Assembly: GCA_015059155.1 (NCBI GenBank)
Contig: SVAX01000001.1
Span: 26,247 to 90,246 of the forward strand
From: Bacillota bacterium
GTDB lineage: Bacteria; Bacillota_I; Bacilli_A; RF39; UBA660
Reading direction: 5' to 3'
Length of the DNA: 64,000 nt
The notes beneath the pieces were generated by a model. That model was not told the origin of the DNA. It worked only from the letters and a program-made list of their open reading frames with translations, and ran no database searches. Position 1 is the stretch's first letter; each line of letters opens with the position of its first letter. Below, piece after piece: positions 2,763 through 63,073 of this stretch. The position numbers were made by a program, and so were the translations under genes.

Positions 2763-3755
2763 TTAATACCATACTCCAAATACGATTGCAGCCATACTAA
2801 GTAGTAATCCTATACACCAAAATACTACTACGATATCTCTTTCATTCCAACCAAGTTTTTCTAAATGATGATGAAACGGTGTCATTAAGAAAACTTTTTT
2901 GTGAAAAAAAACCATACTTACTATTTGTATCAAACAAACTAAAGTTTCAAATATAAATACTCCAGCTATTATTATAAATGTTAATTCATGACTAGTTATG
3001 ATTGCTATTGTAGCCATAACAGCACCTAAAGCTAAACTTCCTGTATCTCCCATAAATACTTTTGCAGGTCTTGAATTAAAAGCAAGAAACCCAAGTAAAC
3101 ATCCAACAAGAACAAAGCAGAAAACTGATATATCACTTGTCCCTTGTATGGCAGGAGAATTTGCACTTATTAAAGCAAATGTTAAGAAAGCTATTAAAGA
3201 AAGCCCTCCAGCAAGACCATCAAGTCCATCTGTAATATTAACTGCGTTTGAACTTGCTACTAACATAAACAATATAAATATTCCATAGAACCATCCAAGA
3301 TTTATTTCTATACCTAAAGTATATATTTCAACAATTGGTTCAGCACCACTTTTCATATATATTATAAAGAATATTATAGCTATTAATATTTGACCTATTA
3401 ATTTTTGAACTACAGTAAGTCCCTCATTATTTTTTCTTTTTATTATTAAGTAGTCATCAATAAAACCTAATAATGCATAACTTAAAAATACAAACATAAC
3501 TATAAATAAGTTAGCAGAAAACTCAATTTTATTCCAAAGTAGTAATACTATAATTGCAAGTATTGTTGGAATTATAAATATTAATCCACCCATAGTAGGA
3601 GTACCTGCTTTTTCTTTATGAGCTTTAAACACATAACTGCTTAATGTTTGTCTAGCTTTTAATTTTTTTAAGAGTGGCACTAAAATTACACCAAATACAA
3701 TTGATATTATAAATCCAATCATTAGTGCGAGCACTCCTCTAGTTAGTTGATACAT
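2763..3755 (-). CDS. mraY: Phospho-N-acetylmuramoyl-pentapeptide transferase MraY
   Basis: Polytopic membrane protein with the MraY blocks GTPTMGG, NAVNITDGLDGLA and MGDTGSLALG. The track start at 3764 is a GTG inside the SD (GAGGTGAAATATATG), so I place the start at the ATG at 3755. Confidence 0.9.
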   Translation of the reverse strand: MYQLTRGVLALMIGFIISIVFGVILVPLLKKLKARQTLSSYVFKAHKEKAGTPTMGGLIFIIPTILAIIVLLLWNKIEFSANLFIVMFVFLSYALLGFIDDYLIIKRKNNEGLTVVQKLIGQILIAIIFFIIYMKSGAEPIVEIYTLGIEINLGWFYGIFILFMLVASSNAVNITDGLDGLAGGLSLIAFLTFALISANSPAIQGTSDISVFCFVLVGCLLGFLAFNSRPAKVFMGDTGSLALGAVMATIAIITSHELTFIIIAGVFIFETLVCLIQIVSMVFFHKKVFLMTPFHHHLEKLGWNERDIVVVFWCIGLLLSMAAIVFGVWY

Positions 3756-3760
3756 ATATT

Positions 3761-5092
3761 TCACCTCAAATATTTCATTACTTTTTCTTTATCACTAAAA
3801 GGAATTTTTTTATCTCTTATTATTTGATAATCTTCATGTCCTTTTCCTAACAATAATAGTATATCATTTTTTGATAACATTTGTATACTTTTCTTTATAG
3901 CTTTTTCTCTGTTTTCAATAATTTTATAATTTTTTATGTCAAGTTTACAAGTTATATCTTTAAGTATTTTTTTAGGCTTTTCATATCTTGGATTATCACT
4001 AGTAAATATTACATAATCTGAATATTTTGTAGCAATATCCCCCATTATACTTCTTTTAGAACGATCTCTATTACCTCCACAACCTATTAAAGTTATTACT
4101 TTATTATGAGGTAATTTAGATACATTAGTTATTATCTTTTCTACTGCATCAGGAGTATGAGCATAATCTATTATTATTACATTGTCTTTATAATTTATAA
4201 TATCCATTCTACCATTAGGTGAATCTAAATTTTCTATTACCTCTTTTATTTTTTCTACTTCAAGTAATTTTAACAAAATTATTACAACAGTTATATTATA
4301 AATATTATATTCACCTATTAATTTAGTAAAATATTCTTCATCATTTAATCTAAAACTAGATCCTTTTATAGTACAATTTATATCACTTATTTTGTAATCA
4401 TTACTAGTTTTTCCATATGTTATATTTTTATTATCTAAAATAAAATAATCTTTGTATTTATCATCACTATTAATAATAGCAAAACTATTATTAGTCATTT
4501 TAAATAGTTTCTGTTTCTCTAATACATAGTTATCAATTGTACCATGATAATCTAAATGATCTTGTGTTAAATTAGAAAATATTACATAATCGAAAACAAG
4601 TGTATCTACCCTACCCATAGATATTCCCTGACTGCTTACTTCCATTACTACATATTCATAATTATTTTGTACACATTCAAGTAACATTTCATATAATTCA
4701 TAAAGACTAGGTGTAGTGTTTGTAAGCATTCTTTTTTCATCAGTTAAATAGAAACCTAATGTTCCAATATATGCACATTTCTTATTTATTTTATTTAAAG
4801 CTTGATACAACAAAAAACATGTGGTTGTTTTTCCATTTGTTCCTGTCATACCAATAAGTTTTAATTTTTTTATTTCATCATAGTAATTATTTTCAAGATA
4901 TTCTTTTAAATATTCTTTAGTATCTTTAACTACAATAGTATTAACATTATATTCTCCTTCTTCTACTATTACTGTACTAGCTCCATTTTTTATAGCATCT
5001 ATTACGTATTTATGTCCATCATTATTTATTCCTCTTAAAGCTATAAAAGTATCTCCTTTTATAACTTTTCTAGAATCAATTTTTATATTCAT
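3761..5092 (-). CDS. murE: Mur ligase, MurE-type paralogue 1 (UDP-MurNAc-L-Ala-D-Glu : diamino acid ligase), short form
   Basis: DSRKVIKGDTFIAL N-terminus, P-loop GMTGTNGKTTT, and C-terminal FTSDNPRYEKP (the DNPR motif of MurE). It sits directly upstream of mraY. Confidence 0.75.
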   Translation of the reverse strand: MNIKIDSRKVIKGDTFIALRGINNDGHKYVIDAIKNGASTVIVEEGEYNVNTIVVKDTKEYLKEYLENNYYDEIKKLKLIGMTGTNGKTTTCFLLYQALNKINKKCAYIGTLGFYLTDEKRMLTNTTPSLYELYEMLLECVQNNYEYVVMEVSSQGISMGRVDTLVFDYVIFSNLTQDHLDYHGTIDNYVLEKQKLFKMTNNSFAIINSDDKYKDYFILDNKNITYGKTSNDYKISDINCTIKGSSFRLNDEEYFTKLIGEYNIYNITVVIILLKLLEVEKIKEVIENLDSPNGRMDIINYKDNVIIIDYAHTPDAVEKIITNVSKLPHNKVITLIGCGGNRDRSKRSIMGDIATKYSDYVIFTSDNPRYEKPKKILKDITCKLDIKNYKIIENREKAIKKSIQMLSKNDILLLLGKGHEDYQIIRDKKIPFSDKEKVMKYLR

Positions 5093-5146
5093 AAAAACAC
5101 CTCAATATAGTTTATGAATTAAAGAGGCGTTTGTGTTTTTACTGAT

Positions 5147-5175
5147 TTGACAAATATAATATAATTTATTATAAT
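5147..5175 (+). promoter_or_regulatory. SigA-type promoter of antisense RNA, copy A
   Basis: TTGACA (5147-5152), a 17-nt spacer, then TATAAT (5170-5175). Confidence 0.7.
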
Positions 5176-5181
5176 GTATAT

Positions 5182-5293
5182 AGATGAGGGAAACTTCATA
5201 CAATAAAAAAGGGAATGTTCAGTTTGCTACACTGAATGTCTACCTAAAAGTTTTAGGCGACATTTAAGCTAAATGCTTAAGTGTCATTTTTTT
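5182..5293 (+). ncRNA. Putative antitoxin antisense RNA, copy A (about 110 nt)
   Basis: It starts downstream of the consensus promoter and ends at the terminator hairpin GACATTTAAGC/GCTTAAGTGTC plus T7. It is complementary to the 3' part of the convergent peptide mRNA. Ends are approximate. Confidence 0.55.
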
Positions 5294-5374
5294 ATAGCTA
5301 ATACCAACAAGGTAAGAAGCGATAAAATGATAGAGATGTATCTTAAAATTTTTATTACAAAAATTTTTTTTCAT
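5284..5374 (-). pseudogene. Type I toxin-like peptide gene, copy A, out of frame because of an A8 run after the ATG
   Basis: GGAGGT-N6-ATG at 5374. The frame equivalent to copy B reads IFVIKILRYISIILSLLTLLVLAIKK-TGA but is displaced by +1 from the ATG. With A7 instead of A8 it would read MKKIFVIKILRY... The ATG frame as given encodes a 36-aa peptide, MKKNFCNKNFKIHLYHFIASYLVGISYKKMTLKHLA (5264..5374). Confidence 0.55.
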
Positions 5375-5438
5375 CTTATCACCTCCAATCTTTCAAGATT
5401 AAAGGTAGACACTCTGTAACTGATATTCCCTATTAATA

Positions 5439-5468
5439 ATTATACCATTTGTATATATGCTAAATCAA
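5439..5468 (-). promoter_or_regulatory. Promoter of toxin mRNA, copy A
   Basis: On the minus strand: TTGATT, an 18-nt spacer, then the extended -10 TGGTATAAT. Confidence 0.55.
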
Positions 5469-5564
5469 TATAAATTTTATAAAAACACGTATTTTTATTG
5501 TTCTATATTTTTTAACAAAAACGAGCATTAAAATATGATATAATGTTGTTAGGAGGAGTTGAAA

Positions 5565-6299
5565 ATGTTAAGATATTTAAACTATGATAAAATAAATATT
5601 GATGAGGAATTTATAAAAATTCAAAATTCAAAAGAGGCAGAAATTATATTAGAACCTAATAATAAAATATGTTTGTTTATTTTAGGTATGTTATTTGTAA
5701 ATGGAATTAAAATAAAATTATTAAATGAAGAAGAATTAAATTTAAAAGAAACAAATAAATCTTTTTCTATGATGCCTTATGTTTGGAGTAAAATTGGTGA
5801 TAATAATTTTAATTATTCTAATGTTGGAACTGAAATGGATAAAAGAATTGAAAATATAAAAAGACTTGGTGTTAAAGTAGAAAAAATAAATAATAATCCT
5901 ATTGATAATAAAATATTTTTAATTTGTCCTGTTAGAAATGCAACTGGTAACCAAAAAAAATGGATAGAAAATTTTGTTAAAGAAAAAAATACTGAAGGAT
6001 TTATTATACACGCTCCTCACCTTCATACTATACAAAGTGATTTGTTTGGTGGATATGCTATATGTAGACAAAATGCTAATGCTGTAGCTACTTCTGAAGA
6101 AATAGATATTTATTATGACCAATCAAGTACTGGTAGCGTTTTTGATTTAGGTGTAGCATATGCTTTAAATAAACCATTATTACTATTAAACAAAGAAGAA
6201 ATTATATTTGATAATAATGATTTAATTGATACAACAATAAAATCATGGCCTTATAAGAAAGAAAAACAAAAAGTATTATCAAAAAAGAACACGAAATAG
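5565..6299 (+). CDS. Hypothetical protein with a C-terminal nucleoside 2-deoxyribosyltransferase-like domain
   Basis: The C-terminal half (IFLICPVRNAT ... SSTGSVFDLGVAYALNKPLLLL) resembles the xYxAGP ... D.GT..E.G.A.A.gKP pattern of the deoxyribosyltransferase/Rcl fold. The N-terminal 115 aa are unrecognised. The track start (TTG 5559) is only 2 nt from the AGGAGG, so I prefer the ATG at 5565. Confidence 0.45.
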   Translation: MLRYLNYDKINIDEEFIKIQNSKEAEIILEPNNKICLFILGMLFVNGIKIKLLNEEELNLKETNKSFSMMPYVWSKIGDNNFNYSNVGTEMDKRIENIKRLGVKVEKINNNPIDNKIFLICPVRNATGNQKKWIENFVKEKNTEGFIIHAPHLHTIQSDLFGGYAICRQNANAVATSEEIDIYYDQSSTGSVFDLGVAYALNKPLLLLNKEEIIFDNNDLIDTTIKSWPYKKEKQKVLSKKNTK

Positions 6300-27085: not shown

Positions 27086-27114
27086 TTGACAAGCAATATA
27101 TAATTTGTTATAAT
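27086..27114 (+). promoter_or_regulatory. SigA-type promoter of antisense RNA, copy B
   Basis: TTGACA (27086-27091), a 17-nt spacer, then TATAAT (27109-27114). Confidence 0.7.
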
Positions 27115-27120
27115 GAATGT

Positions 27121-27228
27121 GTCAAGGAAACTTGCATATAATAAAAAAGGGAACATTCAGTTTGGTTCACTGAATGTCTACCCATGTGAGTGGACATTTA
27201 AGCTAAATGCTTAAGTGTCATTTTTTTA
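27121..27228 (+). ncRNA. Putative antitoxin antisense RNA, copy B (about 105 nt)
   Basis: It runs from the consensus promoter to the hairpin 27193-27219 (11 bp with one GU) plus T7. It overlaps the last 11 nt of the peptide ORF and its 3' UTR in antisense. Ends are approximate. Confidence 0.6.
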
Positions 27229-27310
27229 TTGCTAATACCAACAAGGTAAGAAGCGATAAAATGATAGCGATGTATCTTAAAATTTTTATTACAAAAATTC
27301 TTTTTTTCAT
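27218..27310 (-). CDS. Type I toxin-like hydrophobic peptide (30 aa): MKKRIFVIKILRYIAIILSLLTLLVLAIKK
   Basis: My own translation. GGAGGT lies 6 nt before the ATG. The peptide has a single TM-length hydrophobic core flanked by Lys/Arg. It has its own extended -10 promoter and a terminator hairpin at 27153-27177 plus a T-run. It is too short for the ORF track. Confidence 0.65.
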   Translation of the reverse strand: MKKRIFVIKILRYIAIILSLLTLLVLAIKK

Positions 27311-27374
27311 CTTATCACCTCCAATCTTTCAAGATTAAAGGTAGACACTCAGCAACTGATATTTCCTATATGTA

Positions 27375-27403
27375 ATTATACCATTTGTATATATAATATT
27401 CAA
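27375..27403 (-). promoter_or_regulatory. Promoter of toxin mRNA, copy B
   Basis: On the minus strand: TTGAAT, a 17-nt spacer, then TATAAT preceded by TGG (extended -10). Confidence 0.55.
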
Positions 27404-49283: not shown

Positions 49284-49547
49284 CTATTGATTTTGGATAT
49301 TAGAAAGAATTACTAATAATTGTTTTTGTATTTCAAAAATATCATCATATATAAATGTTAAAAAATCATTCTCAGGCATTTGTGAATTTAAATTATAATT
49401 TTTAATTTTAAAATCATTTTGAATGCCATGATATATTTCTAATTTTTTTAATAATTCTCCTATAAACATTAATTCACTACTTATTGCATCTTTTTTATCG
49501 TCAAGTTCTAATGCCTCAAACTTATTTTTTAAATTTAAACTGATCAT
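49284..49547 (-). CDS. Hypothetical small helical protein (87 aa), translationally coupled to the repeat protein
   Basis: ATGA start/stop overlap with the upstream gene. No family recognised. Confidence 0.5.
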   Translation of the reverse strand: MISLNLKNKFEALELDDKKDAISSELMFIGELLKKLEIYHGIQNDFKIKNYNLNSQMPENDFLTFIYDDIFEIQKQLLVILSNIQNQ

Positions 49548-50647
49548 ATATGTTTTACCTCTTCAATTTCATTTGATTTTGTATTAGATAAATTTCTTTC
49601 TATTTCTTGTTTTCTAGCATTGATAAATTCTTGTCTTTTTTCCTCTTGATTTTGTTTAAATCTTTGATAAGGTGTTAATTCATTTTCTCCATAAATCATT
49701 ACCTGGTGCCAATTTACATTTTTTCCACTTAACTCCTCATATATTAAATTAAGACCTGGAATCATATTCCCATTACGTTCAAATTGTTTACCATAATGTT
49801 GCCCTAAATCAGCAGGTATAGGCATAGTGAAAACGATATCCAATCTTCTTTGCTGTTGCCATAAATTTTCTTTTATATCTTCTGGAATTTTAATTGCATT
49901 TAAATCACTAAAATTCCATTGATGTTTTTTTAATACATATAAATATTTCTCATATATTGTTATTAAACTTTCTATTTCTTTCTTTGTGCTTTCTATTTTA
50001 ATTCTATCATTTTTGTCAACTTTTTTTAATTCAAAAGATTTCATATAAAGCTTTTCAAATAATTGTTCAATAAATTTTCTTATAATCCCATTTGACTGCA
50101 TACTTCTTATTGCTGCTGCCTCAAATTGATTTTCATCTGTTATAAGTGGATTATTAATTAAATTATTAAAATATTCATTGTATGGAATATCTTGTTTTCT
50201 TTTTTCTGCAACTTGAGCTTCCATAATTCTTATATCTGATTCATTTAAATTTTCTGCTGATCCATAATGTTGATATGTTGGTTTTACTTCATTTCTTCTA
50301 GCTCTTATCTCTGCTTCCATACTTTCTATTTCTGAACCATTTAAATTTTCTGCTGATCCATAATGTTGGTATGTTGGTTTTACTTCATTTCTTCTAGCAT
50401 TTATTTCTGCTTCCATACTTTCTATTTCTGAACCATTTAAATTTTCTGCTGATCCATAATGTTGGTATGTTGGTTTTACTTCATTTCTTCTAGTTCTTAT
50501 CTCTGCTTCCATACTTTCTATTTCTGAACCATTTAAATTTTCTGCTGATCCATAATGTTGGTATGTTGGTTTTACTTCATTTCTTCTAGCATTTATTTCT
50601 GCTTCCATATTTTTTATCTCTATATCGTTTAAATTTTCCATGTTCAT
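49544..50647 (-). CDS. Hypothetical protein with four N-terminal 32-aa tandem repeats and an unrecognised C-terminal domain of about 200 aa
   Basis: Strong SD (AGGAGGG) and its own TTGATA-17-TAGAAT promoter at 50668-50696. Repeat unit: EIESMEAEI(N/R)(A/T)RRNEVKPTYQHYGSAENLNGS. Confidence 0.6.
   Translation of the reverse strand: MNMENLNDIEIKNMEAEINARRNEVKPTYQHYGSAENLNGSEIESMEAEIRTRRNEVKPTYQHYGSAENLNGSEIESMEAEINARRNEVKPTYQHYGSAENLNGSEIESMEAEIRARRNEVKPTYQHYGSAENLNESDIRIMEAQVAEKRKQDIPYNEYFNNLINNPLITDENQFEAAAIRSMQSNGIIRKFIEQLFEKLYMKSFELKKVDKNDRIKIESTKKEIESLITIYEKYLYVLKKHQWNFSDLNAIKIPEDIKENLWQQQRRLDIVFTMPIPADLGQHYGKQFERNGNMIPGLNLIYEELSGKNVNWHQVMIYGENELTPYQRFKQNQEEKRQEFINARKQEIERNLSNTKSNEIEEVKHI
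50230..50645. repeat. Tandem repeat, 96-bp unit, about 4.3 copies, in frame within the CDS
   Basis: The string tgctgatccataatgttg recurs at 50255, 50351, 50447 and 50543 (96-nt period), with only a few substitutions between units. Confidence 0.9.
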
Positions 50648-50692
50648 ATATTGACCCTCCTAGTATAATTCTATCATATAAATTATTGTATA

Positions 50693-59921: not shown

Positions 59922-62010
<2,089 letters not shown>

Positions 62011-62018
62011 TAATTCAC

Positions 62019-62843
62019 TTAATTAATATGTTTCTGTTTTCTTTTATTTAATACATTCAACTGATAATTCGCAATATTAGAAAGTATATCAAATCTTTCT
62101 TCTTTAGATTTACCTTCTTTAATTAACTCTGCATTATGAGTCTCTAAATTGGATAATACTGTCAATTCATTTATTGTAGCAAAATCTCTCATATTAGAAT
62201 TTTTAGATAAATCTAGATTTAATTCTCTCCATTCTTTTGCAGTTGTGTTAAATATTATTACATTTAATATATCGGCTTCTTCAGCATATTTTAACCAACT
62301 TTTATCTTTATAATAATTCTTATTTGGTAAAATATAATTTTTTATTGCTTCTGTATGTATTAAATAATTATTTTTTGTAAGTAATCTTTTAACATTCCAT
62401 TCACTATTTCTATTCTCTATTTGCTTTAATCTCTGAAACTCTTTTATCAAATATAGTTTAAATATAGGGCTTATTGATGATGCAAATTCAAATGCAATAT
62501 CTTTATGTGCATAAGTACCTCCATATTTACCTCGCTTTGAATATATCCCAATTGCGTTTGTTTTCATCGCCCACTCTGTTACACTAAGGGTAAAAGTGTG
62601 TAATCCAGAATTTTTTCTAAACCCGTCGAATTCGACGTAATTAAAATCAGGATTATATATTTGTTCCCAAGTCCCTAAAAATTCTAAAGTGCTTCTATTT
62701 CTTAACCAATTTTTAATTATATCATCAGTTTTCGATTTACCAATCTTTGCTTTTGCAATATCTGAAATACATATATAATCCTCTTCATTTTCAATAGTTA
62801 TATTTATTGGTATATCTTGTACTGTAATTGTACTGTTTTTCAT
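62019..62843 (-). CDS. KilA-N domain-containing protein
   Basis: The N-terminal roughly 130 aa (ICISDIAKAK...NWLRNRSTLEFLGTWE...GGTYAHKDIAFEFASSISP) match the KilA-N DNA-binding domain pattern. Confidence 0.7.
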   Translation of the reverse strand: MKNSTITVQDIPINITIENEEDYICISDIAKAKIGKSKTDDIIKNWLRNRSTLEFLGTWEQIYNPDFNYVEFDGFRKNSGLHTFTLSVTEWAMKTNAIGIYSKRGKYGGTYAHKDIAFEFASSISPIFKLYLIKEFQRLKQIENRNSEWNVKRLLTKNNYLIHTEAIKNYILPNKNYYKDKSWLKYAEEADILNVIIFNTTAKEWRELNLDLSKNSNMRDFATINELTVLSNLETHNAELIKEGKSKEERFDILSNIANYQLNVLNKRKQKHIN

Positions 62844-62904: not shown

Positions 62905-62988
62905 TTATTATAGCACCAGTATATATAACTATCTACAAAAAAAGTATATTATTTTATATACTTTCTTTGTACTCTTTTAGATATATTA
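62905..62988. repeat. Direct repeat R2 flanking the KilA-N cassette
   Basis: Identical 36-nt core at 62938-62973 and a collinear ttattatagca at 62905-62915. Confidence 0.85.
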
Positions 62989-63073
62989 CAGATAAATTCA
63001 TATAGTATGGTACTTAAATAATTATTTAAAGTTTTTATATGATTTATATCTTTATAGATGTATACTTTATTAT

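Follow-up and report, generated by a model that had tools for sequence, protein, structure and literature searches.

Two collinear modules in the genome of an uncultured gut bacterium

The window, by which we mean the whole 64-kb stretch of DNA that was analysed, comes from the genome (25% GC) of an uncultured gut bacterium and holds two collinear modules, copy A (5147-5468) and copy B (27086-27403), which can be aligned over ~330 nt. In each module a predicted plus-strand small RNA (sRNA) gene converges on a minus-strand transcription unit for a small hydrophobic peptide, the putative toxin, whose reading frame is intact in copy B and broken in copy A. The features of copy A are the following:

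5147..5175, plus strand: sRNA promoter TTGACA-17-TATAAT, 12/12 consensus match
5182..5296, plus strand: predicted antisense sRNA of ~115 nt (ends predicted), fold -34.7 kcal/mol, z = -5.9
5184-5199, plus strand: sRNA 5' hairpin ATGAGG-GAAA-CTTCAT
5200-5210, plus strand: A-rich linker of the sRNA
5211-5244, plus strand: sRNA hairpin H1
5243-5257, plus strand: sRNA hairpin H2
5259-5285, plus strand: sRNA terminator hairpin H3, with a T7 run at 5287-5293
5439..5468, minus strand: toxin-mRNA promoter TTGATT-18-TGgTATAAT, 10/12 match, extended -10
5205..5432, minus strand: predicted toxin mRNA of ~228 nt, fold -72.1 kcal/mol, z = -8.7
5409-5432 and 5211-5244, minus strand: 5' segment and 3' end of the mRNA, predicted to pair with each other (duplex -33.9 kcal/mol)
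5375-5408, minus strand: Shine-Dalgarno (SD) hairpin (stem from 5381), with an 11-bp stem that covers the SD GGAGG at 5386-5382
5364..5371, minus strand: A8 run right after the ATG (5374-5372), site of a 2-nt deletion relative to A7-G-AA of copy B
5264..5374, minus strand: frameshifted open reading frame (ORF) from the original ATG, 36 aa, MKKNFCNKNFKIHLYHFIASYLVGISYKKMTLKHLA, an unrelated, non-hydrophobic peptide
5284..5370, minus strand: toxin-frame remnant KKIFVIKILRYISIILSLLTLLVLAIKK plus TGA (residue codons 5370-5287), without a start codon and preceded by an in-frame TGA
5205-5239, minus strand: mRNA 3' hairpin and U run

Those of copy B are:

27086..27230, plus strand: promoter of the sRNA at 27086-27114 and, at ~27121-27230, the predicted sRNA, which carries the canonical 5' motif GTCAAGGAAACTTGCAT
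27403-27375, minus strand: toxin promoter, followed by the predicted mRNA (27368-27143), fold -68.1 kcal/mol, z = -7.6
27218..27310, minus strand: intact toxin ORF MKKRIFVIKILRYIAIILSLLTLLVLAIKK, 30 aa, with orthologues 70-80% identical in other species

An earlier note, made from the letters of the window, had described two collinear copies built from the same parts, and our alignment bears this out: the sRNA promoter of copy B is as perfect as that of copy A, and the SD hairpin as well as the sRNA terminator with its T7 run are 100% identical between the copies. The toxin promoter, for which identity had also been claimed, is common to both in its extended -10 element (TGGTATAAT) but differs upstream of it, with TTGATT and an 18-nt spacer in copy A versus TTGAAT and a 17-nt spacer in copy B. 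The repeat shared by the modules spans 94-113 nt at 94-97% identity, and no chance match to the 35-37-nt SD-to-start pattern (with a variable gap over the A run) is expected in shuffles, which together exclude a likeness by chance. The flanks of the two copies are merely 36-67% identical.

The toxin reading frame of copy A is broken by a 2-nt deletion

On the minus strand, ATG-A8-TTTTTG in copy A stands against ATG-A7-G-AA-TTTTTG in copy B, as the earlier note had read it. Relative to copy B this is a 2-nt deletion that shifts the frame as a +1 would. As also claimed there, the hydrophobic frame is displaced and has a TGA in front of it (which overlaps the ATG), the ATG opens the unrelated 36-aa frame instead, and removal of one A from the run regains a 29-aa ORF with its native SD and start. 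The remnant frame is 93% identical to the copy B peptide (tblastn), and the two ORFs differ by two substitutions (one nonsynonymous, one synonymous) in addition to the indel. In the intact, full-length relatives that the copy B peptide has in L008, L020/L049 and L035, the ORF still counts 30 codons and the fourth of these is Arg or Lys, which makes A8 the derived state.

Three explanations had been offered for the broken frame, namely a decayed copy, slipped-strand switching of a toxin and a homopolymer sequencing error. The first fits best, but "decayed" is too strong a word for a module whose SD hairpin and terminator are identical to those of copy B and whose ORF is nearly so. The near-identity of this core between flanks that are so much less alike implies either that the inactivation of copy A was recent or that the core was homogenised by gene conversion. 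The preserved ORF and SD core could also mean that the toxin mRNA is still selected for something.

The A8 run is the same in assemblies from ten samples

Homopolymers are error-prone on some sequencing platforms, and the two copies, being 95% identical, may confuse an assembler. Scaffold L070 is a hybrid of A and B, and the junction in the terminator loop of the L065 and L070 variants may stem either from a true insertion or recombination or from a chimeric assembly. If such an error were at work in copy A, its true sequence would read A7 or A7-G-AA and its toxin would be intact. We find this scarcely credible. One and the same 472-bp spacer with A8 stands in the contigs of 10 samples from two data sources, seven from JGI (3300018878, 3300032167, 3300022753, 3300024269, 3300023371, 3300018494 and 3300022661) and three from ENA (ERZ27248351, ERZ27248314 and ERZ27248370). 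The A7-G-AA of copy B was intact and identical in six other assemblies, located via a 279-aa neighbour protein (an exact look-up of the 720/718-aa ORF adjoining copy B returned no record). The copy B state moreover requires two nucleotides including a G, which is no mere miscount of a run, and of 23 runs of eight or more A or T in the window, 15 lie inside intact long ORFs. A sequencing error is thus essentially refuted.

The idea of switching holds that replication slippage (A8 to A7 or A10) turns the toxin on and off, or that transcriptional slippage yields a minor share of A7 transcripts, which encode MKKIFVIKILRY... and so give an attenuated toxin. As in phase-variable contingency loci and slippage-rescued genes, the frameshift of copy A lies in a homopolymer, here right after the start codon; loss of a single A would suffice to restore the frame, the remaining ORF, SD hairpin and promoter are essentially undamaged, as for a switchable gene, and slippage has been documented on runs of nine A and in some organisms of eight (PMC1088944). 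Unlike at such loci, however, the consensus assemblies from the 10 samples revealed no length polymorphism at 5364-5371, although these represent one clone (0 differences over 3.1 kb) and report consensus bases, among which a minority A7 is invisible. The comparison of orthologous loci that had been proposed as a check also speaks against a switch, as relatives do not conserve the run, let alone an unusually long one, and interrupt it in AAGAAAAGA, AAAAACAAA and AGTAAAAGA. Eight A are an ordinary length for this genome, and the 15 runs within intact ORFs suggest that such tracts are not notably slippery or harmful here (by the reasoning of PMC1088944), while the toxins of other family members were lost through non-reversible lesions (see below). 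An exact look-up in a collection of 15 billion proteins found neither the copy B toxin, nor the 36-aa product, nor the A7, A10 or Arg-containing restored copy A peptides, an absence that is uninformative about "ON" variants because small ORF calls are not part of that collection. We consider a toxin that is switched or leaks by slippage quite improbable, and the 2-nt deletion in copy A real.

Predicted structure of the antisense sRNA and of the toxin mRNA

The predicted sRNAs and mRNAs of both copies fold with whole-RNA z-scores between -5.2 and -8.7. A CA-to-TG change at 5216-5217 in copy A leaves G-U pairs in H1 of the plus-strand RNA but amounts to A-C mismatches once the minus strand is transcribed. 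H1 of the sRNA weakens from -14.3 kcal/mol (B) to -10.1 kcal/mol (A), and the toxin mRNA loses more, its local 3' hairpin going from -16.4 kcal/mol (B) to -6.7 kcal/mol (A). That these substitutions weaken the local terminator of the toxin transcript, as had been stated, is therefore thermodynamically right. [quoted passage not shown] We also rejected the notion that the change disables the toxin mRNA of copy A as a whole, since the 5'-3' pairing energy is unchanged.

The 5' hairpin of the copy A sRNA is 60% identical to that of copy B in a motif that is otherwise near-invariant. Its GAAA loop has been kept via compensatory changes, and natural variants of the stem occur elsewhere (GTCAAA-GAAA-TTTGAC in L033 and TGAGA-GAAA-TCTCA in L060). 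With its perfect promoter, identical terminator, G-U-paired H1 and compensated 5' hairpin, the sRNA of copy A looks maintained; the divergence of the 5' hairpin might just as well mark the onset of decay. We computed a duplex energy of -111 kcal/mol for the heterologous sRNA-mRNA pair of copies A and B versus -150 kcal/mol for the cognate pair, and the overlap regions have an identical block of 37 nt in common. On these models it is plausible that the sRNA of copy A can cross-neutralise the toxin mRNA of copy B, although strict cognate specificity of antitoxins is the rule in the type I toxin-antitoxin (TA) families studied (PMC6393307, PMC6733600).

A module family in uncultured gut Bacilli

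A search of genome contigs with the pattern of sRNA promoter plus 5' motif returned 57 loci in 50 species-representative metagenome-assembled genomes (MAGs), all from uncultured gut Bacilli or "Tenericutes", and a peptide search added eight further copies, each with a variant 5' hairpin in its sRNA. In every complete module a small hydrophobic ORF, preceded by an SD, converges on the sRNA gene, and this ORF is intact (23-31 aa) in 44 of 54 evaluable modules. Strong promoter, 5' hairpin with GAAA tetraloop, A-rich linker, H1 and terminator recur as the sRNA layout, to which copy B conforms with the exact motif and copy A with a variant 5' stem, so that both are members of the family. The 47 unique sRNAs fold to essentially one layout, with compensatory double changes at 7/8 pairs of H1; RNAalifold recovered the 5' hairpin and H1 only, the terminator hairpin not being alignable across peptide groups (MAFFT). 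One 5' handle (GAAA hairpin and A-rich linker) is common to at least five different peptide groups.

Four of the peptide groups gave a pooled pN/pS of 0.19-0.41, the fifth one of 0.65, and by this coding signature the family ORF is under purifying selection. Hairpins at the SD region average -11.5 kcal/mol versus -4.4 kcal/mol for 198 ordinary genes of the same loci, and the duplexes between the mRNA 5' and 3' ends range from -27 to -38 kcal/mol (z of -6 to -11) though their sequences differ between peptide groups. The modules are multicopy and arranged in tandem, with turnover of presence and absence at hot spots. Together, the 50-species distribution, the coding signature, SD occlusion, 5'-3' mRNA pairing and covariation strongly support the "TA-like module" reading of the earlier note.

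Known families did not account for the modules. Neither copy A nor copy B scored near the gathering threshold of any Rfam model, and among 21 peptides compared with Pfam and NCBIfam the best E was 0.035, with no known toxin family below E = 0.23. Module-specific pattern scans of viral contigs and of metagenome contigs gave no match, nor did the SD-hairpin pattern in genome contigs; since the window and loci L001-L004 are all recognised by the latter pattern, the collections that gave no match apparently do not include this organism. In the literature on type I TA in Mollicutes, on gut MAGs and in T1TAdb we found no description of the family, which does not in itself prove novelty.

Recurrent loss of the toxin with retention of the sRNA promoter

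Copy A is not alone in its lesion. The toxin is not intact in 10 of the 54 evaluable modules, all of which retain the sRNA promoter and 5' motif, a proportion that is biased because the sRNA motif served as the search probe and modules without an sRNA cannot be found with it. The modules with a dead toxin are:

Copy A: 2-nt deletion
L039: 4-nt deletion
L018: frameshift
L023, L025, L028, L046, L047, L053 and L056: 5' truncation

The fold of the sRNA is normal in L025, L039, L046, L047, L053 and L056, and L023 and L028 lack part of the sRNA body. The reverse case, a toxin kept and an sRNA lost, did not occur among the eight copies from the peptide search. That the ORF is lost repeatedly where the sRNA promoter and 5' motif stay in place is an indirect hint that the peptide may be toxic.

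This pattern bears on a different reading, in which the peptide is a harmless small membrane protein under control of a cis-antisense RNA, and copy A a redundant paralogue on its way to losing its coding capacity. Toxicity of the peptide is indeed presumed, homology to known toxins is lacking, and not every small hydrophobic peptide that comes with an antisense RNA is toxic. Against it stand the one-sided losses just described and a combination of features that forms the signature of type I TA systems (PMC6733600, PMC8594479): the antisense promoter is a consensus one and that of the mRNA weaker, the SD is occluded, the mRNA ends are locked 5'-3', and the modules occur in several copies and in tandem, with presence/absence turnover at hot spots. 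We deem the harmless-peptide reading unlikely and continue with a TA-like family.

Comparison with known type I systems

By its architecture, which is what the class assignment consists in, the intact module would be a type I TA system. It has a hydrophobic ORF of fewer than 60 aa with SD and start (30 aa in copy B, broken in copy A), a cis-antisense RNA with promoter, terminator, three-hairpin fold and ~90-nt overlap with the 3' end of the mRNA in silico, and a primary transcript that SD hairpins and 5'-3' duplexes are predicted to make non-translatable. A primary transcript kept from translation, either by an anti-SD that occludes the SD or by a long-distance interaction between 5' and 3' ends, is a hallmark of type I toxins (PMC6733600). 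No curated model of the known families (such as Fst, TxpA, BsrG/E/H, YonT, SprA1, SprG, Hok, Ldr, Ibs and TisB, or the Rfam antitoxins) matches the modules significantly.

With TxpA/RatA, BsrG/SR4, BsrE/SR5 and YonT/SR6 of Bacillus subtilis the modules have in common convergent transcription, an antisense RNA that overlaps the last part of the ORF and the 3' end of the mRNA, small hydrophobic peptides whose ends are charged, and a toxin mRNA folded so as to bury the SD. Several of the B. subtilis type I systems reside in prophage regions. By contrast, the modules from gut Bacilli, whose hosts are uncultured and low in GC, had no match among viral contigs; their peptides are shorter (24-31 aa), a single 5' handle serves at least five peptide groups, and neither by sequence nor by covariance model do they match RatA or another Rfam antitoxin, or a Pfam or NCBIfam toxin. 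An organisation with the antitoxin on the 3' side has been described for Gram-positive families in T1TAdb (PMC8594479).

SprG/SprF of Staphylococcus aureus resembles the modules in its several paralogous copies per genome and in RNAs that interact via overlapping 3' ends, and one of its copies, SprG4, is not expressed (PMC6393307). There is no homology between the two, and SprF neutralises its cognate toxin only (PMC6393307), which argues against assuming that the copy A sRNA protects from the copy B toxin, even though the overlaps of A and B share the 37-nt identical block. The hok/Sok and AapA/IsoA systems likewise have toxin transcripts locked by a 5'-3' interaction and SD/anti-SD hairpins (PMC6733600), and chromosomal multicopy toxins that are readily inactivated by single mutations; they differ in that their antitoxin overlaps the 5' region or ORF and acts on 3'-processed mRNA, whereas the antisense RNA of the gut Bacilli modules, which are not known to have such a processing step, covers the very 3' segment engaged in 5'-3' pairing.

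Fst/RNAII (par of Enterococcus) is similar in its convergent RNAs, Gram-positive host, facing terminators, small membrane peptide and structured mRNA 5' end. Fst carries a conserved Pro-containing motif, which is absent from the gut Bacilli peptides, and no Pfam or Rfam match connects the two. The interaction between the Fst RNAs involves 5' direct repeats. It takes place outside the overlap (PMC8594479), which is a further difference.

Discussion

We conclude that copy A likely belongs to a type I TA-like family with no Rfam, Pfam or NCBIfam match, that a 2-nt deletion put its toxin gene out of action in the recent past, and that its antisense RNA gene is structurally intact. From the predicted features we infer that both RNAs are transcribed, and we propose the following mode of action for a module that, like copy B, is intact. 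A weaker minus-strand promoter would give a ~225-nt mRNA that encodes a hydrophobic membrane peptide (24-31 aa), and this mRNA would silence itself, with a local hairpin hiding the SD and the first ~30 nt pairing with the last ~45 nt. The plus-strand promoter, of consensus strength, would drive a convergent sRNA of ~110 nt able to pair without a mismatch with the 3'-terminal ~90 nt of the mRNA, including the final Lys codons and the stop, the 3' hairpins and the U tail. By analogy with TxpA/RatA, BsrG/SR4, BsrE/SR5 and SprG/SprF, the duplex may lead to mRNA decay, by a presumed RNase step, and/or to a block of translation. From copy A the hydrophobic peptide could no longer be made at the ATG and the sRNA could still be produced; this sRNA may now function as an orphan antitoxin, possibly also against the copy B mRNA. 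The near-invariant 5' handle, here taken to include the promoter, joins peptide groups that look unrelated; it may be what a host factor recognises in all of them, or it may anchor recombination and so let toxin cassettes be swapped at hot spots such as the site upstream of murE.

If, on the other hand, slippage does occur at A8, rare A7 DNA or transcripts would yield the 29-aa toxin from a preserved cassette, and the toxin would be dosed by slippage.

What emerges is a large family of loci of the type I TA-like kind. Standard annotation has missed it, as the usual pipelines call neither the sRNAs nor ORFs of 30 aa, and it has no match in curated libraries. The lineage in which the family is found consists of uncultured gut bacteria with small, low-GC genomes, for which no such systems have been annotated. 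The frameshifts of copy A, L039 and L018 and the seven 5' truncations offer natural "suppressor" alleles for the design of toxicity tests, and an intact copy B next to a broken copy A, with identical SD hairpin and terminator, provides a paired comparison within one genome. The same pair is suited to the question of whether an orphan antisense RNA may cross-protect against a paralogous toxin, in a field where the families studied are strictly specific.

Nature of the frame break in copy A

The window (25% GC) is chromosomal, carrying tmRNA, tRNAs and cell-wall genes, and copy A lies in a 472-bp spacer between a Mur-ligase gene and a 244-aa ORF. It comprises a predicted plus-strand antisense sRNA gene and a convergent minus-strand frame for a small hydrophobic peptide, the predicted toxin. 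A further unit (copy B, 27086-27403) aligns with it collinearly and has the full set of copy A's parts.

Features of the modules and identity between copies A and B (H1 and H2, internal sRNA hairpins; H3, sRNA terminator hairpin; SD, Shine-Dalgarno)
3761-5092, minus strand: Mur-ligase gene, left of the copy A spacer
5147-5175, plus strand: sRNA promoter, 12/12 consensus match; identity 83%
sRNA 5' hairpin: identity 60%
H1: identity 89%
H2 region: identity 36%
ending near 5205, minus strand: 3' hairpin and U run
5259-5293, plus strand: sRNA terminator, 11-bp G+C-containing hairpin and T7, ~85 nt downstream of the promoter
5259-5295: terminator H3 with T run; identity 100%
toxin ORF: two substitutions and the indel between copies
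5374, minus strand: ATG
5375-5408: SD hairpin; identity 100%
5381-5408, minus strand: hairpin burying GGAGG
5468-5439, minus strand: toxin promoter, 10/12, extended -10; identity 67%
5565-6299: 244-aa ORF, right of the spacer
27218-27310: copy B peptide MKKRIFVIKILRYIAIILSLLTLLVLAIKK, intact ORF

The U tract of the sRNA terminator is templated by the C-terminal AAA-AAA-TGA/TAG of the ORF and that of the mRNA terminator is complementary to the A-rich linker of the sRNA, two shared tracts that show how tightly toxin and sRNA genes interlock. The sequence statements of the earlier note all held, except that the two copies have the "same" toxin promoter: they share only the extended -10. Elsewhere in the window, a 96-nt unit in four tandem copies (72-90% identity, 50191-50670) lies within a 367-aa ORF (49544-50647) for a repeat-domain protein, and a 64-nt intergenic repeat (86% identity, 61960-62023 and 62938-63001) lies upstream of two consecutive minus-strand genes.

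Directly behind its ATG, copy A has A8-TTTTTG where copy B has A7-G-AA-TTTTTG, a 2-nt deletion. The ATG frame of copy A gives an unrelated 36-aa peptide. Its hydrophobic frame, at 5370-5287, shares 93% identity with that of copy B but has no start and is preceded by an in-frame TGA. A homopolymer sequencing error, one of three explanations offered earlier, is very unlikely, since the entire spacer including the A8 run is unchanged across contigs of 10 samples (JGI and ENA; consensus calls that, except for the mosaic contig L076, represent a single clone and show 0 differences across 3.1 kb), copy B reads A7-G-AA identically in 6 assemblies, and 15 of the 23 A/T runs of at least 8 nt in the window leave long ORFs unbroken. 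These contigs, retrieved from other assemblies through exact-protein look-up of flanking genes, prove the sequence and, being clonal consensus, carry little information on low-frequency variants. L076 (ENA ERZ27248314) matches the window exactly over the spacer and three genes to its right; from the gene boundary on, 91 of 728 positions differ in murE (L076:1-728 versus 4365-5092), so it is a mosaic produced by recombination or else a chimera of metagenome assembly. A8 is the derived state, because those relatives of the copy B peptide that are intact and full-length (loci L008, L020/L049 and L035) are encoded by 30 codons, the fourth specifying Arg or Lys.

Slippage at A8 might switch the copy A toxin on and off, as the earlier note proposed, or make it leaky: the cassette is otherwise pristine, loss of one A restores the frame, and slippage on A9, sometimes A8, is documented (PMC1088944). 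However, no length polymorphism of the A run was seen among the consensus contigs of the 10 samples, comparison of related loci revealed that the tract is not conserved in orthologues, and runs of this length are nothing out of the ordinary in the genome; phase variation is therefore not supported, and we regard it as very improbable.

Mosaic identity and pairing of the two copies

Identity between the copies is mosaic along the module, and the toxin core of copy A lacks the drift expected of an old pseudogene. Hence, of the proposed decay, the frame break is real and long-standing drift is not seen (H3 and the SD hairpin remain identical to copy B), which argues for either a recent deletion or homogenisation of the core by gene conversion. 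One scaffold (L070) has copy A-type SNPs at the copy B site, compatible with gene conversion and with misassembly; it also contains an N gap and an A/B-hybrid toxin ORF with its stop mutated from TGA to AGA. Strain variants of copy A (L065:1-110) and copy B (L070:2575-2670) break off exactly at the loop of the sRNA-terminator hairpin that the two copies have in common (GACACTTAAGC^ATTTAGC on the minus strand, corresponding to 5270-5275 and 27204-27209) and run on into similar foreign ends (..GTCCAA..AATGGGGTTCA..ACA); these could reflect an inserted element or third module type targeting the loop, or assembly chimeras of two 95%-identical copies.

In the toxin mRNA, the CA-to-TG change in H1 lowers the predicted stability of the local 3' hairpin (-16.4 to -6.7 kcal/mol), with a smaller loss in the sRNA hairpin (-14.3 to -10.1 kcal/mol). 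The earlier point that G-U pairs in the sRNA become A-C mismatches in the mRNA holds thermodynamically; as a sign of relaxed selection on the toxin transcript it is weak, since one event is all it draws on. The 5'-3' pairing of the mRNA is unaffected (-33.9 versus -34.0 kcal/mol). Given a modelled heterologous duplex between copy A sRNA and copy B mRNA of -111 kcal/mol (cognate, -150) with a 37-nt perfect block, cross-protection against toxin B is possible. The antitoxins SprF and IsoA, however, act on their cognate partners only (PMC6393307, PMC6733600).

A family of modules in uncultured gut bacteria

Neither copy matched Rfam at gathering thresholds, nor anything relevant at E up to 10, the peptides had no match in Pfam or NCBIfam, and the module family was not found in these databases or in the literature searched. 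Scanning one genome per GTDB species with the promoter and 5' motif (TATAAT-N6-GTCAAGGAAACTTGCAT) yielded 57 loci in 50 MAG assemblies, all from uncultured gut "Bacilli", "Tenericutes", "Mollicutes" or "Erysipelotrichaceae" of human, mouse, rabbit, goat, rumen and chicken. Viral contigs gave 0 matches to the sRNA motif. Records with MurE homologues bear the label "MAG: Bacilli bacterium". Several module-bearing MAGs (L009, L013, L024, L029, L036, L045, L055 and L059) are titled "uncultured Muribaculaceae", and NCBI taxonomy places Candidatus Scybalousia under Bacteroidales; these labels look wrong, or the bins contaminated. Contig L042 ends right after a truncated module in CTGTCTCTTATACACATC (3000-3022), which we take to be Nextera-adapter-like and thus an artefact of assembly that entered a public MAG.

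Downstream of the motif the order is constant (A-rich linker, H1, variable middle part, terminator hairpin and T run), and the opposite strand of each module carries a small ORF for a hydrophobic peptide, preceded by an SD, a hairpin over it and a -10 box. The peptides (24-31 aa) form 5 to 6 groups; their N-terminus is basic, their core hydrophobic, and many end in Lys-Lys. A peptide-based search added 8 copies, none obviously without a convergent hairpin-terminator unit, whose sRNA 5' hairpins vary in sequence and keep the GAAA loop (e.g. GTCAAA-GAAA-TTTGAC and TGAGA-GAAA-TCTCA); the copy A hairpin, ATGAGG-GAAA-CTTCAT, is a further natural variant of this kind. Tandem modules are frequent (2-3 copies, 300-1650 nt apart, peptide groups sometimes mixed; among L008-L064, e.g. 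L009, L029, L034, L040, L043, L059 and L064). Locus L050 is an sRNA 5' handle alone.

Several measures indicate that the parts are functional. As a coding signal, pooled pN/pS lay between 0.19 and 0.41 for four of the peptide groups and reached 0.65 for the fifth. The 47 unique sRNAs are predicted to adopt essentially one layout, in which the 5' hairpin is followed by a single-stranded A-rich linker, H1 and the terminator, with compensatory double changes at 7/8 H1 pairs in a 24-sequence alignment. Whole-RNA fold z-scores of the two copies were -8.7 and -7.6 for the mRNAs and -5.9 and -5.2 for the sRNAs. The 48 nt upstream of the start place the SD in the 3' arm of a predicted hairpin, and their mean folding energy is -11.5 kcal/mol, compared to -4.4 for 198 ordinary SD-bearing genes of the same loci. 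Pairing is also predicted between the first 32 and the last 48 nt of the mRNA (-27 to -38 kcal/mol, z -6 to -11; the few outliers are wrongly called promoters), and this pairing is maintained despite different paired sequences between peptide groups. [quoted passage not shown] The kind is already known: type I TA in which the antisense RNA overlaps on the 3' side, one paralogue's toxin being inactivated. The strong plus-strand promoter would keep the sRNA in excess, and the sRNA would bind the ~90-nt 3' region of the toxin mRNA, pairing likely being initiated by loop-loop contacts at H1 and H3; by analogy with RatA, SR4, SR5 and SprF, the duplex may lead to cleavage and decay and/or hold the mRNA closed.

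Module turnover and recurrent toxin loss

Comparison of the murE spacer (5093-5564) with L005:2373-2501, L006:2040-2500, L007:2040-2500 and L021 bore out the value of examining related loci. In L005 (91% MurE identity) the spacer is 128 bp without a module; in relatives with 87-89% MurE identity it holds an inverted module with other peptides, MNKKDFLIFSQVITILLLILLLFIVLI and MTKRELSQFIIILLLFFIVITLLFK, whose sRNA promoter and 5' end are nearly identical to copy B. With its module missing, inverted with another peptide group or copy B-like depending on the genome, this site upstream of the murE paralogue is a hot spot of module turnover.

Modules that have lost the toxin but retain the 5' motif and promoter of the sRNA are common in the family (10/54 evaluable modules, a count biased by use of the sRNA motif as probe): besides the 2-nt deletion in copy A, there is a 4-nt deletion (L039), a frameshift (L018) and 5' truncation in L023, L025, L028, L046, L047, L053 and L056. 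The sRNA fold is still normal in six (L025, L039, L046, L047, L053 and L056), and part of the sRNA body is lost in L023 and L028. The dead ORF of L047 is chimeric, with a group-1-like N-terminal and a group-2-like C-terminal part.

The broken frame is thus real but ordinary biology. What is unusual is that one near-invariant sRNA 5' handle is common to several peptide groups, and that a single intergenic site turns over between absence of the module, inversion and a different peptide; the greater value lies in the module family behind the broken frame than in the broken frame itself.
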